A program made the position numbers. From the NCBI RefSeq assembly GCF_051903065.1, contig NZ_CP178438.1: 64,000 bases of DNA. One strand, 5' to 3'. This document shows positions 21,001-27,000 of this stretch, piece by piece (the stretch's first letter is position 1; every line of letters starts with the position of its first letter). Source of the stretch: Escherichia coli. GTDB taxonomy: Bacteria; Pseudomonadota; Gammaproteobacteria; Enterobacterales; Enterobacteriaceae.

Positions 21001-24000
21001 TATCATTTCTTGATGCTCATCAGGCTGTCTACGTTCAGCATCATGAGGGCAAAGAGCCTTTAGAGTATCGCTTTTGGGTTACCTACTCTCTTCACTGCTT
21101 CACAAAAGATTATGAACATCAGACGAACGAAGAAAAACAATCGTTAATGTACCACGCGCCTAAAGAATCTCGTCCCTTCTGCCAGCACCGTTATAACTTA
21201 GCGCGCACACACTTAAAAAGAACTATTTTGGCGCTGCCAGAAAGCAACGTTATTCATGCCGGGTATGGTAGCTATGCCGTGATTGAGGTGGACTTAGACG
21301 GAGGAGATAAGGCATTTTACTTTGTTGCGTTCAGGGCTTTCAGGGAAAAGAAAAAACTCCGTTTGCATGTAACTAGCGCTTATCCCATTTCTGAAAAACA
21401 GAAAGGTAAATCAGTGAAATTTTTCACCATTGCCTACAACTTATTGAGAAATAAGCAGCTTCCTCAGCCCTCAAAATAACAAAACCCACCTTAAGGTGGG
21501 TTTCGCCAGAGAATTATCTCTGGTATTCAGAACGCCATTACCGGACTTTGCCTTGACCTTGCGATAATCGCAGGTTGCGGGATGTCTGAATTTCTTCAGT
21601 CTGCTGCATCCTGGAAGATGAGAACATGTGTTCTTATTTTCGTCTCTATCATAGTTGAGTATTTACTCTCTTACAATCAGATCTCTTTCATTGCTCAACA
21701 GGCGATGGCTTCAGACTTTGCATTACGAAATTTTTAAGAAAGGCAGGGCGAAAGGAGGAAGAAGCTTTTCGCCCTGGACAACATTCCTGCTGACGGCACT
21801 ACCATAAAAAAACACAACGCTTTCAACAACCTTGCGTTTTTCATCTTCCGTGGCGGCTCGGAATAAATTTACGTTCTTACATTCCGTGTCATAGTCTTTG
21901 CGAGGCGCGTCCCAGATAGCTGTCCCAGTCTTTCCATACCGGCTGCAAACCCTGAGCGGTTAACGCTGCAGCAACCGCTTCCGGTCTGCGATCGTCGTGC
22001 GGTGAGAACTGTTCCAACTCGGGGTGATTATCAGCATAGCCACCTGGCTGCGTTTTCGAGAAGGCGCTGACGTTATTGATCGCCAGCGGAATAACGCGAT
22101 CGCGAAACCACGGTGATTCCCGCGTGGAGAGTGACAGTTCAATCTCCGGTGCAAGCAGTCGGAAGGCGCAGATGGTTTGCACTAACTGGCGTTCATCCAT
22201 AATCGACGCAGGCTCAATGCCGCCAGTACACGGGCGCAGGCGCGGAAAGGAGACAGAGTAACGGCTTTGCCAGTAATGCTGTTGCAGCCATAGCAAATGT
22301 TCTGCAACCATATAGCAGTCAACGCGCCAGCTGTCGGAAAGGCCAATTAGCGCGCCGAGGCCTATCTTATCAATCCCCGCACGGCCCAGCCGATCCGGCG
22401 TTTCCAGCCGCCAAAAGAAGTCCTGTTTTTTGCCTTTCAGATGATGGCGGGCATATGTCGCCTCGTGATATGTCTCCTGATAAACCATCACCCCATCCAG
22501 ACCAAGTTGCTTTAACTCGGCGTATTCCGTCTCCGCCAGCGGTTGCACTTCCATCTGTAGTGAAGAGAACTGTTCACGTAGGGCAGGGAGATGACGACGA
22601 AAGTAATCCATCCCCACTTTCGCCTGATGTTCACCAGTGACTAATAGCAGATGTTCAAAGCCCATCTCCCGTATAGCGGCGCTTTCCCTGGCAATATCCG
22701 CTTCATCCAGCGTTTTGCGCTTGATGCGATTACTCATGGAAAATCCGCAGTACGTGCAGTCGTTAGCGCAAAGATTGGAAAGATAAAGCGGGACGTAGAA
22801 ACTAACTGTGTTGCCAAATCGCTGACGGGTCAGACGCTGCGCCCGTTGGGCCAGTTGTTCCAGATAGCCACTGGCGGCTGGCGATAACAGCGCCATCATA
22901 TCGTCGCGGGTGAGTTGCGAGGCATTTAGCGCCCGCTCTACGTCAGCAGCCGTTTTGCCGTTGATACGCAGGCGGATGTCGTCCCAGTCCAGTTGTCGCC
23001 AGCGATCGCTGAAGGTTTTCATACCGATGCCTCCAGAAATCCGGTCAGCGGGCTGGTGGCATGAGCAAAATAACTGCGGCTGCCCGGTCCGGACTGACGT
23101 GCCAGCAGGCCTGCTTCTACTGCCAGACGAAATGCCTTCGCCATGTTGACGGGATCGTCCGCGACGGCAATCGCCGTATTCACTAACACCGCGTCGGCCC
23201 CCATTTCCAGCGCCTGCGCGGCATGGCTGGGAACGCCGATGCCAGCATCGACAACCACCGGAACTGTGGCCTGCTGGATAATAATCTCCAGCATGGCGCG
23301 GGTTTCCAGCCCCTGATTCGAGCCAATCGGCGCGCCGAGCGGCATCACCGCTGCACAGCCGACTTCTTCCAGACGTTTACACAATACCGGATCGGCCCCG
23401 CAGTAAGGCAGCACGACAAATCCCTGTTGTACCAGCGTTTCGGCGGCTTTCAGGGTTTCGATGGGATCGGGCAACAGCCAGCGGGCGTCAGGGTGAATCT
23501 CTAATTTTAACCAGTTTGTGCCTAACGCTTCATGAGCCAGATGGGCGGCGAAAATGGCTTCTTCCGCTGTTTTCGCCCCGGATGTATTTGGCAGCAGGGT
23601 CACACCCGCCGCGATAAGCGGTTCGAGGATAGCGTCGTTGTGCTGGCGCAAGTCGACACGTTTCATCGCCAGTGTCACCAGCTGGCTGCCGGAAGCGCGG
23701 ATCGCCTCCACCATCAGTTGTGAAGAAGCGAATTTCCCTGTGCCGGTAAACAGATGTGAATCAAACGTTTTGTCCGCAATACGTAACATCTCAACCCCCT
23801 GCAATAACCTGAAAAAGCAGGATCTGGTCGCCATCCTGCACGATATGTTGCGTCCACTGCTCACGTGGGACGATTTGCTGATTAATCGCCAGAGCCGCGC
23901 CCGCTTGTCGTTGGTCGAGTTGCTCCAGTAGTTCGTGAACAGTTTGCCCGGCGGCGCACTGCATCGGTTGATCGTTAAACAGGATCTGCATTGCTTCCTC

Positions 24001-27000
24001 CGCATACCGGGCAACCACTGGCGCGGCGCAACGCCAGGCTGCGCCACTGGCTCGACTTACCGTCGAACAGTCGGAGTTCTCCCGCAGGCGTCTCTATACC
24101 GCTTAATAACTTAATGGCTTCCAGTGCCTGCAAAGTGCCCATAACCCCGACCACCGGGCCAACCACGCCCGCCGTGCGGCAGTTGCGTTCTGGCTCCTGG
24201 TTATCTGGCCACAGGCAGCGGTAACACCCCTGCTCCCAGGGCGGCGTCAGTACCATCAACTGACCGCCAAATCCGACCGCGCTGGCGGTGATAAGCGGCG
24301 TGTTGAGTGCCACGCAGGCGGCATTAATCTCCTGGCGAGTCGCCATATTGTCGGTACAGTCGAGCACCACATCGGCTTGTGCAACCGCATCTTTTAACGC
24401 CTCACCCGTTAACCGTTGTTGTAATGCTGTCAGTTGAATATCGGGATTCAACTGTGTCAGTCGCTGATGGCTGACCTGCGATTTCGGGCGATCGATATCT
24501 TCAGTGGTAAAGAGGATTTGTCGTTGCAGATTGCTTAAATGCACATCGTCGTCATCTGCCAGTACCAGCGTCCCGACGCCAGCGCCCGCCAGGTATAGCG
24601 CAGCAGGTGTACCCAGCCCGCCAAGACCGATAATCAGCACCTGGCTGTCGAGCAGTTTTTGCTGCCCGTCAAGAGCGATATCGTCGAGCAGGATTTGGCG
24701 GCTATAACGCATAAAATCACGGTCATTCATCGCCAACTCCTGCAATTTCCAGCAACTGTGCCGTTGCCAAACGCCAGTCTGCGGCTTGAGTAATGGCGCT
24801 GACGACGGCGATACTGCCGACACCCGTTGCTATCACCGCAGGCGCGCGTGCCAGACTGATACCGCCAATCGCCACGGTGGGATAATCCGCCAGTCGCTCA
24901 ACATGCCGTGCCAGCTGTTCCAGCCCCTGCGGTGCAGAAGGCATCTGTTTGGTTTGCGTCGGGAACACATGTCCCAGCGCGATATAAGAGGGGCGTGCTG
25001 CCAGCGCGACGTCGATTTCCATATCGTCATGTGTCGAAACGCCCAGCCGCAGGCCTGCCGCGCGGATGGCATTGAGATCGGTGGCTTGCAAATCTTCCTG
25101 CCCCAAATGGACGCCATACGCCTGATGCTTGATCGCGAGCCGCCAGTAATCGTTGATAAACAATCGCGCGTTATAGCGGCGGCCCAGCGCAATTGCCGCC
25201 ACGACATCGGCTTCCACCTCTTCATCGCGCCGATCTTTGATGCGTAGCTGGAGAGTACGTACGCCTGCATCCAACAGACGTTCGATCCACTGTACGCTGT
25301 CCACCACTGGGTACAGTCCTAAACGAAAAGGTACAGGAGGAAAATCAGGCTGATACATCACGCTTCCTCCTTACGCAGGTAGATTTCTCCGCCTCTGGCG
25401 CGGAAGTTTTCCGACATATCCGCCATTCCCACTTCAATGGTTTGCGTGGCGGCGTAATCACGCACTTCCTGGCTGATTTTCATCGAGCAGAATTTCGGCC
25501 CACACATGGAGCAAAAATGGGCGACTTTACCTGACTCTTGCGGCAGGGTTTCATCGTGATAAGCGCGGGCGGTAAACGGGTCGAGGGCCAGATTAAACTG
25601 GTCTTCCCAGCGAAATTCGAAGCGGGCTTTCGACATGGCGTTATCGCGAATTTGCGCGCCCGGATGCCCTTTCGCCAGGTCAGCGGCGTGGGCGGCAATC
25701 TTATAGGTGATAAGCCCCTGCTTAACATCTTCTTTATTAGGCAGACCCAGATGCTCTTTTGGCGTTACGTAACAGAGCATCGCGCAGCCAAACCAGCCAA
25801 TCATCGCCGCACCAATCCCCGACGTGAAGTGGTCATAGCCCGGCGCAATATCGGTAGTTAGCGGCCCCAGAGTGTAAAACGGCGCTTCGTGGCAGTGCTC
25901 TAACTCCTCGGTCATATTGCGGCGGATCATCTGCATCGGCACGTGGCCTGGGCCTTCAATCATCACCTGCACATCATATTCCCAGGCGATTTTTGTCAGT
26001 TCGCCCAGCGTATGCAGCTCGGCAAACTGCGCTTCATCGTTGGCGTCCTGAATAGAACCGGGGCGCAGACCGTCGCCCAGCGACAGCGAAACGTCATAAG
26101 CGGCACAGATTTCACAAATTTCGCGGAAGTGTTGATAGAGGAAATTTTCCTGATGATGGGAGAGGCACCATTTCGCCATAATCGAACCGCCGCGCGAGAC
26201 GATACCGGTCAGGCGTTTCGCGGTCATCGGCACATAGCGCAGCAGCACCCCCGCATGGATAGTGAAGTAATCCACACCTTGCTCGGCCTGTTCCAGCAGC
26301 GTGTCGCGGAACGCTTCCCAGGTAAGATCTTCGGCGATCCCGTTAACCTTCTCCAGCGCCTGGTAGATCGGCACTGTACCGATCGGCACTGGGCTGTTAC
26401 GCAAAATCCACTCGCGGGTTTCGTGAATATAGCGACCGGTGGAGAGATCCATCACCGTATCCGCTCCCCAGCGCGTGGACCATACCAGCTTTTCCACTTC
26501 TTCTTCGATGGAAGAGGTGACCGCCGAGTTGCCGATATTGGCGTTAACTTTTACCAGGAAATTGCGACCAATAATCATCGGCTCCGATTCCGGATGATTA
26601 ATGTTGGCCGGGATAATCGCACGTCCGGCAGCAACTTCATCACGGACAAATTCCGCAGTGATATTTTCCGGCAGACGTGCGCCAAAGCTCATTCCCGGAT
26701 GCTGGTGGCGTAAAACTTCGCTACGGATGCGCTCGCGGCCCATATTCTCGCGGATGGCGATGAATTCCATTTCTGGTGTGATGATGCCCTGGCGGGCGTA
26801 GTGCAGTTGTGTGACGCGGCGTCCTGCTTTGGCGCGTTTTGGCGTTAATACGCCGCTAAAACGCAGCTCGTCGAGGCCATCATCTGCCAGCCGCGCTTTA
26901 GTGTAATCGGAACTGCGCACGGTAAGTTCTTCGGTATCGCCGCGCGCATCGATCCACGGCTGGCGTAGTTTTGCCAGCCCTTGCTGCACGTTAATGGCGA

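Follow-up and report, generated by a model that had tools for sequence, protein, structure and literature searches.

The thiCEFSGH genes of Escherichia coli raise a double question: when the genes of an operon leave almost no room between them, is their translation also tied together, and are the annotated start codons the ones that are used? We addressed it with the copy carried by a 64,000-nucleotide (nt) stretch of contig NZ_CP178438.1 (RefSeq assembly GCF_051903065.1), called the window below, in which the operon region analysed lies on the minus strand at positions 21889-27434. A previous reading of the window, made from the sequence alone, had held that the tight junctions imply translational coupling across the operon and explain why several six-frame open reading frames (ORFs) run well upstream of the true starts. 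The analysis reported here supports an operon with conserved short starts, in which each downstream gene is preceded by a Shine-Dalgarno (SD) motif located inside the upstream gene, and in which neighbouring cistrons are probably translated with at least partial coupling.

The junctions were read directly on the minus strand, and spacings were counted from stop to start, a negative value being an overlap. In operon order, the five internal spacings are -1, -8, -17, +1 and -4 nt (Table 1). Three of them had been described exactly by the sequence-only reading: the 17-nt overlap of thiF and thiS, the one-nucleotide separation of thiS and thiG and the 4-nt overlap of thiG and thiH. The 8-nt thiE/thiF overlap was absent from that reading, and its statement that thiC and thiE share ATGA is wrong. 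The sequence is GTGATG, in which stop and start have a single base in common (TGATG). A 4-nt overlap (GTGA) is possible at this place only with the GTG at 25361 as start, the codon picked by a mechanical six-frame ORF list and also the end coordinate given for the junctions in the earlier reading. A true ATGA junction between thiC and thiE was observed in three relatives, one Enterobacteriaceae metagenome-assembled genome and two Superficieibacter (L024, L026 and L045; locus position ~2970), where ThiE has one extra N-terminal codon (M-S/N-Y-Q-P).

Five consecutive tight junctions are not random against the background of the window, because few of its other co-directional gene pairs overlap. 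Among ~22 such neighbours, overlaps occur in two, murB/birA and zraS/zraR (-4 nt in both cases), while secE/nusG (+1) and rplK/rplA (+3) are close without overlapping. In E. coli, 34% of operons have overlaps and gaps do not exceed 10 nt in half of them (PMC4538824), and -4, -1 and -8 are the three enriched overlap classes across prokaryotes (PMC12548453). The compact layout of the thi genes is real and conserved, yet it is the ordinary style of bacterial operons.

Conservation was followed in thiF neighbourhoods from 80 Enterobacteriaceae species (ThiF identity 73-97%), in which the genes were located by tblastn. The co-directional order thiC-thiE-thiF-thiS-thiG-thiH is the same in the 80 relatives. 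Between thiC and thiE, the spacing is -1 in 77 and -4 in 3 of the 80 sequences with both genes, the window included, and between thiS and thiG, 75 of 78 sequences have +1 and one has +2. At the other three junctions the exact spacing drifts between two classes: -8 (66 sequences) and -14 (15) for thiE/thiF, -17 (47) and -20 (32) for thiF/thiS, -4 (61) and -1 (14) for thiG/thiH. No intact locus among the 80 species has a junction wider than +2 nt. The sole spacing outliers, Kluyvera genomosp. 3 (L009, CP022114.1) and Citrobacter amalonaticus (L055, JARDVN010000001.1), carry several frameshifts, with thiS/thiG or thiF/thiS frames merged and thiG or thiH truncated. These two loci are probably indel assembly errors, a run of five G ending thiS, or pseudogenes, and were left out of the statistics.

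Each of the five downstream genes has a conserved SD within the 3′ end of the preceding gene, 5-7 nt before the ATG. Synonymous positions inside these motifs are invariant or nearly so, compared with 1.5-1.9 bits at typical wobble positions: the wobble base of the GAG codon at -9 of thiE is invariant in 73 unique sequences, and that of the GGA codon at -8 of thiS has an entropy of 0.1 bit. GGAG is found upstream of thiF in all junction variants listed, and the thiG motif appears as GGGGG or GGAGG in the variants of the relatives. Two of the SDs, those of thiS and thiG, coincide with glycine codons that are fixed by the function of the upstream protein, in the C-terminal CPVCGG of ThiF and in the Ala-Gly-Gly end of ThiS, the diglycine of ThiS being its thiocarboxylation site.

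An unbiased scan of the whole operon placed the most constrained 6-codon synonymous window at the extreme 3′ end of the gene in thiE, thiS and thiG. In thiC and thiF, the window of lowest synonymous diversity found by the same scan was not at the 3′ end. For thiS, the lowest diversity falls on codons 57-62 (23806-23823, minus strand; AUC CUG CUU UUU CAG GUU), where it is 0.22 in 76 sequences, the mean of the gene being 0.57. This U-rich segment lies directly upstream of the thiG SD and might serve thiG translation as a standby or enhancer site, or belong to a structure. A 7-base-pair stem can also be drawn in thiS (GCAGGAU/AUCCUGC); the wobble bases of its 5′ arm are variable.

Every available line of evidence identifies the short annotated starts as the true ones, and on this point the earlier reading was borne out by conservation of the ATG codons, interruption of the upstream extensions, family profiles and solved protein chains. 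In every locus of the 80 species, ATG stands at the position corresponding to each annotated start. In-frame stops upstream of it come as near as 4 codons for thiE and thiG, 1 codon for thiF and 8 codons for thiS. No alternative upstream start is available in 60 of 79 loci for thiE, 19 of 79 for thiF, 12 of 78 for thiS, 19 of 76 for thiG and 66 of 74 for thiH. At the position of the GTG before the thiE ATG, 13 of 79 loci only have a start codon, CTG being the usual codon there.

Protein evidence leads to the same starts. Position 1 of the ThiE profile NF002904 aligns to the ATG-encoded Met, the second residue of the GTG-initiated ORF, and the alignments to the ThiS and ThiF models set in no more than a few residues from the annotated Met. 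With the 342-residue ORF of the thiG frame, no ThiG model was matched in NCBIfam, where the only match was a weak one to FabK; the identity of ThiG was settled by Pfam PF05690, whose domain starts at residue 90 of this ORF, the annotated Met being residue 87, three residues earlier. Solved chains of E. coli ThiS (1F0Z and 1ZUD; 66 residues) and ThiF (1ZUD; 251 residues) begin at the annotated Met, and residue 1 of Bacillus subtilis ThiG (1TYG) aligns to the Met of E. coli ThiG. From the annotated starts, with Met retained, the masses computed for the K-12 proteins are 7311.2 Da (average; monoisotopic 7306.7 Da) for ThiS and 26895.8 Da (average) for ThiG. Kelleher et al. (1998, Protein Sci 7:1796) reportedly found that a predicted 34-kDa ‘ThiG’ was in fact two proteins, ThiS of 7310.74 Da and ThiG of 26896.5 Da, values with which the computed masses agree. 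For K-12 MG1655 (NC_000913.3, 4191865-4193576), the protein accession versions NP_418420.4 (thiF) and NP_418418.2 (thiG) and the late number b4407 of thiS indicate that the gene models were revised after the first annotation.

Could the long ORFs nevertheless be the genuine genes? They do exist as had been noted, with 342 against 256 residues in the thiG frame, 282 against 251 in that of thiF and 75 against 66 in that of thiS, and their upstream parts are free of stops in this strain over 86, 31 and 9 codons, respectively. Initiation would then take place at GTG 24047 for thiG, GTG 24823 for thiF, GTG 24018 for thiS and GTG 25361 for thiE (212 residues). In favour of such genes, thiG was at first predicted to encode a protein of ~34 kDa. 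We consider this possibility very improbable: beyond the interruptions and missing start codons in the relatives, the extensions match no family profile, the ThiS, ThiF and ThiE profiles begin at the annotated Met, functional ThiF and ThiS were solved as the short forms, the masses computed for the short ThiS and ThiG agree with the mass-spectrometric values, and it is the short starts that are preceded by conserved SDs. The proposal that the overlaps explain the long ORFs holds in a trivial sense, the upstream DNA being the previous gene read out of frame, but these frames are closed in relatives. As far as the compared sequences can tell, the long ORFs arose by accident in this sequence and are not a consequence of coupling, because the distance at which relatives have a stop in the same frames varies widely.

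The out-of-frame adjacency could also be imagined to serve programmed frameshifting or read-through, giving fusions such as ThiS-ThiG or ThiF-ThiS. In its favour, the thiG frame of this strain is open across the whole of thiS, and thiS ends in the run of five G mentioned above. The open thiG frame is not conserved, however, and the two loci with merged frames carry other frameshifts and resemble assembly errors or pseudogenes. ThiS moreover requires, as is generally known, a free C-terminal Gly-Gly for thiocarboxylate formation. ThiS and ThiG were also reportedly seen as separate proteins by mass spectrometry. Fusion and frameshift readings were rejected on the grounds that the frames are unconserved and the merged loci frameshifted; we give them next to no credence, less even than the long ORFs.

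With the short starts established, a ribosome that completes one thi gene would terminate only a few bases away from the following start, and because of this proximity an at least partial coupling of neighbours is probable. It would proceed by termination-reinitiation at the -1, +1 and -4 junctions, perhaps also at the -8 junction. Spacings from -4 to +3 nt give the most efficient coupling (PMC12548453), and coupling was strict in four of five native E. coli ATGA pairs tested (PMC6728339). The thiC/thiE, thiS/thiG and thiG/thiH spacings lie within about the range from -4 to +3 nt, and partial coupling by reinitiation is likely there. At thiE/thiF, whose spacing falls in an enriched class, it is plausible. 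At thiF/thiS, which is outside the optimal range, coupling is probably weaker: thiS starts 17 nt inside thiF behind a strong GGAGG, its own initiation would probably weigh more, and this SD may allow an independent, possibly higher synthesis of ThiS. The likely benefit of coupling would be a proportional synthesis of complex partners, ThiF-ThiS, ThiS-ThiG and ThiG-ThiH. The first partnership is documented by PDB 1ZUD, and ThiS-ThiG and ThiG-ThiH also act as complexes. Gene pairs for subunits of heteromeric complexes are enriched in short overlaps (PMC10666635).

Several points weigh against coupling. A literature search found no statement or experiment on translational coupling of the thi genes. 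The bioBF pair has an ATGA junction, yet it is uncoupled (PMC6728339). Reinitiation drops for overlaps above ~10 nt and is gone near 25 nt (PMC4538824); the 17-nt overlap of thiF and thiS falls where measured reinitiation declines (PMC4538824; PMC12548453). Every downstream thi gene has a good SD, with which de novo initiation could suffice. Junction windows of 73 nt fold no more stably than shuffled sequences (z-scores from -1.36 to +0.75), and RNAalifold gave no strong consensus structure at any junction, only weak helices of -0.9 to -5.2 kcal/mol. A test by synonymous randomisation revealed no excess occlusion of the SD at thiE/thiF, thiF/thiS and thiS/thiG, and an excess of about one standard deviation at the other two junctions. 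Finally, the spacings were found conserved within one family, Enterobacteriaceae, and this may partly reflect inheritance rather than selection.

In a rival account, the overlaps would have no translational role, each cistron being initiated independently from its own SD and the tight spacing passively representing genome compaction through NTGA or TGATG junctions that arise and persist easily. That all five downstream genes have conserved and well-spaced SDs, that junction structure is not significant and SD occlusion shows no excess at three junctions of five, that the exact spacing drifts, and that bioBF is uncoupled are all in line with such an account, as is the suggestion of Brown & Wade that the abundance of the -4 class may reflect ease of evolution (PMC12548453). 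It fits less well with junctions that never exceed +2 nt in the intact loci of 80 species, with the coupling of most E. coli overlapping pairs tested (PMC6728339; PMC10666635) and with a synonymous constraint that, at the 3′ ends of thiS and thiG, extends past the SD itself. We judge an absence of any translational role to be unlikely, while granting it appreciable weight, and retain at least partial coupling as the probable reading. The earlier wording, by which the layout implies coupling across thiCEFSGH, was a reasonable deduction but over-stated, considering the genes’ own SDs, the uncoupled bioBF and the 17-nt overlap.

At thiG/thiH, and weakly at thiC/thiE, the translating ribosome may in addition unfold a hairpin in which the downstream SD is hidden. 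In the candidate thiG/thiH stem, GCCACCAG pairs with CUGGAGGC, so that the thiH SD is paired with thiG codons 244-246. The hairpin is present in both the minimum free energy and the centroid structures of this junction (z-score -1.36), and the 36-nt stretch 23026-23061 alone folds to -12.9 kcal/mol. Both arms are near-invariant in the 73 unique sequences, including at wobble sites that the SD cannot explain, and the hairpin region is the window of lowest synonymous diversity in thiG. No covariation is seen at the stem because its pairs do not vary; the structure is therefore a candidate only. In the synonymous-randomisation test, where the sequences are phylogenetically related and hence not independent, SD pairing was 0.76 for native against 0.66 for recoded sequences at thiG/thiH (mean z-score 0.93), and 0.60 against 0.49 at thiC/thiE (mean z-score 0.89). 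A hairpin formed in this strain between the thiE SD and thiE codons 6-8 was rejected as a conserved element: no more than 16-52 of 76 sequences keep several of its pairs, and compensatory changes are absent.

We would tentatively raise the possibility, which we hold to be rather doubtful, that RNA elements other than the SD are under selection at the 3′ end of thiG, and perhaps at those of thiS and thiC, the clearest being the hairpin over the thiH ribosome-binding site, and that thiH is translated only after thiG. If so, gating of thiH translation by thiG would hard-wire the ThiG:ThiH stoichiometry with which the oxygen-sensitive ThiGH complex is assembled. A real hairpin would be a further example of structure-mediated coupling between complex partners, useful for re-engineering the thiamine pathway, and would introduce no new principle.

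That the region is the chromosomal thiamine biosynthesis operon of E. coli is clear from several sources. A 7-kb stretch around the junctions has 100% DNA identity to sequenced E. coli chromosomes and was found in 5,420 of 5,426 complete E. coli genomes. The RefSeq annotation of a 100%-identical chromosome and the K-12 MG1655 annotation both place the thi genes on the minus strand, and all six annotated frames translated cleanly in our hands. ThiC, ThiE, ThiF, ThiS and ThiH match NCBIfam equivalog models, and ThiG matches Pfam PF05690. The gene identities and operon order given by the sequence-only reading agree with the family models, with RefSeq and with the identical chromosomes. A thiamine pyrophosphate (TPP) riboswitch lies upstream of the thiCEFSGH operon (PMC5234074). 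The genes would form one transcription unit controlled by this riboswitch, and they encode the enzymes that make the two moieties of thiamine, pyrimidine and thiazole, and join them. A single six-gene transcript agrees with the lack of gaps between the genes, the transcript itself being known from the literature.

Table 1. Positions of the thiCEFSGH genes, their junctions and associated RNA motifs in the window
Feature	Coordinates	Strand	Description and support
TPP (THI-box) riboswitch, thiC leader	27334-27434	-	Rfam RF00059, 74.8 bits (gathering score 54.3); RefSeq riboswitch
thiC	27253-25358	-	phosphomethylpyrimidine synthase, 631 residues; NCBIfam NF006763, 1073 bits; RefSeq
thiE	25358-24723	-	thiamine phosphate synthase, 211 residues; ATG start at 25358; NCBIfam NF002904
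thiF	24730-23975	-	ThiS adenylyltransferase, 251 residues; TIGR02356; PDB 1ZUD; RefSeq
thiS	23991-23791	-	sulfur-carrier protein, 66 residues, C-terminal Gly-Gly; TIGR01683, PF02597
thiG	23789-23019	-	thiazole synthase, 256 residues; Pfam PF05690, 369.8 bits
thiH	23022-21889	-	2-iminoacetate synthase (radical S-adenosylmethionine enzyme), 377 residues; TIGR02351, 527 bits; RefSeq
thiC/thiE junction	25361-25356	-	GTGATG; TGA 25360-25358, ATG 25358-25356; 1 shared base (TGATG), spacing -1
thiE/thiF overlap	24730-24723	-	ATGAATGA; 8 nt, spacing -8
thiF/thiS overlap	23975-23991	-	17 nt, spacing -17
thiS/thiG junction	23793-23787	-	TGA-g-ATG; 1-nt spacer, spacing +1
thiG/thiH overlap	23022-23019	-	ATGA; 4 nt, spacing -4
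thiE SD	25363-25372	-	AAGGAGGAAG; in thiC 3′ end; GGAGG 7 nt before ATG
thiF SD	24737-24741	-	AGGAG; 6 nt before ATG
thiS SD	23997-24001	-	GGAGG; 5 nt before ATG; made of ThiF Cys-Gly-Gly codons (tgc gga gga)
thiG SD-like motif	23795-23800	-	AGGGGG; 5 nt before ATG; made of ThiS C-terminal Ala-Gly-Gly codons
thiH SD	23034-23030	-	GGAGG; 7 nt before ATG
Candidate hairpin over thiH SD	23060-23029	-	arms 23060-23053 and 23036-23029, the latter containing SD GGAGG

Some further features were observed around the operon and elsewhere in the window. Downstream of thiH, also on the minus strand, lies the small RNA sroH (Rfam RF00372, 164 bits), of which 21500-21641 is the part inside the searched range; the K-12 annotation puts it ~250 nt past the thiH stop. 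Two overlaps between convergent genes occur in the window, one of 4 nt between zraR (plus strand) and purD (minus strand) at 35775-35778, the other of 32 nt between aceK (plus strand) and a pseudogene fragment of espL4 (minus strand) at 52464-52495. The type III effector gene espL4 is divided into two pseudogene fragments by a frameshifted IS1A (54019-54715). The transposase of the IS3-family element IS1397, with a programmed frameshift (44399-45747), adjoins the rrn operon.

The operon, its gene boundaries, every junction and the meaning of short overlaps are already known or annotated, and the idea of coupling is a standard one. The analysis brought two corrections, TGATG in place of ATGA at thiC/thiE and the missed thiE/thiF overlap, and it added that 80 Enterobacteriaceae species conserve the annotated short starts and that the long ORFs are accidental. 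A mildly new lead is the synonymous constraint at the 3′ end of thiG together with its candidate SD-hiding stem. Beyond such housekeeping, the significance is small.

Among known systems, the closest is thiCEFSGH of K-12 itself (b3994-b3990 and b4407) with its thiC TPP riboswitch, which has identical genes, order, start and stop positions and all five spacings; the two differ by 1-4 residues per protein, and the thiS/thiG spacer base is G here and A in K-12. With the reinitiation-coupled pairs studied by Huber et al. (2019, 2023) and reviewed by Brown & Wade (2025), the thi genes share the -4, -1 and -8 spacings, SDs located within genes and products that are complex partners (PMC6728339; PMC10666635; PMC12548453). 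Coupling of those pairs was measured, whereas the thi junctions are known from sequence, and the thiF/thiS overlap of 17-20 nt exceeds the classes studied experimentally. In systems coupled by RNA unfolding, upstream ribosomes open a hairpin that conceals the downstream ribosome-binding site; the thiG/thiH junction would be comparable through its candidate stem, which is invariant in 73 sequences and lies where synonymous variation is suppressed; the thiG/thiH stem differs from them by its lack of covariation, its modest z-score (-1.36) and its modest excess over synonymously randomised controls. RNAalifold detected no conserved SD-hiding structure at the other thi junctions. A comparable arrangement is found in a different pathway, in moaD/moaE and other operons of ubiquitin-like sulfur carriers, where a small gene for a carrier ending in Gly-Gly directly precedes the gene of its partner enzyme. 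The likeness extends to ThiF, whose paralogue MoeB was matched in a structure search with ThiF (MoeB structure 1JW9).

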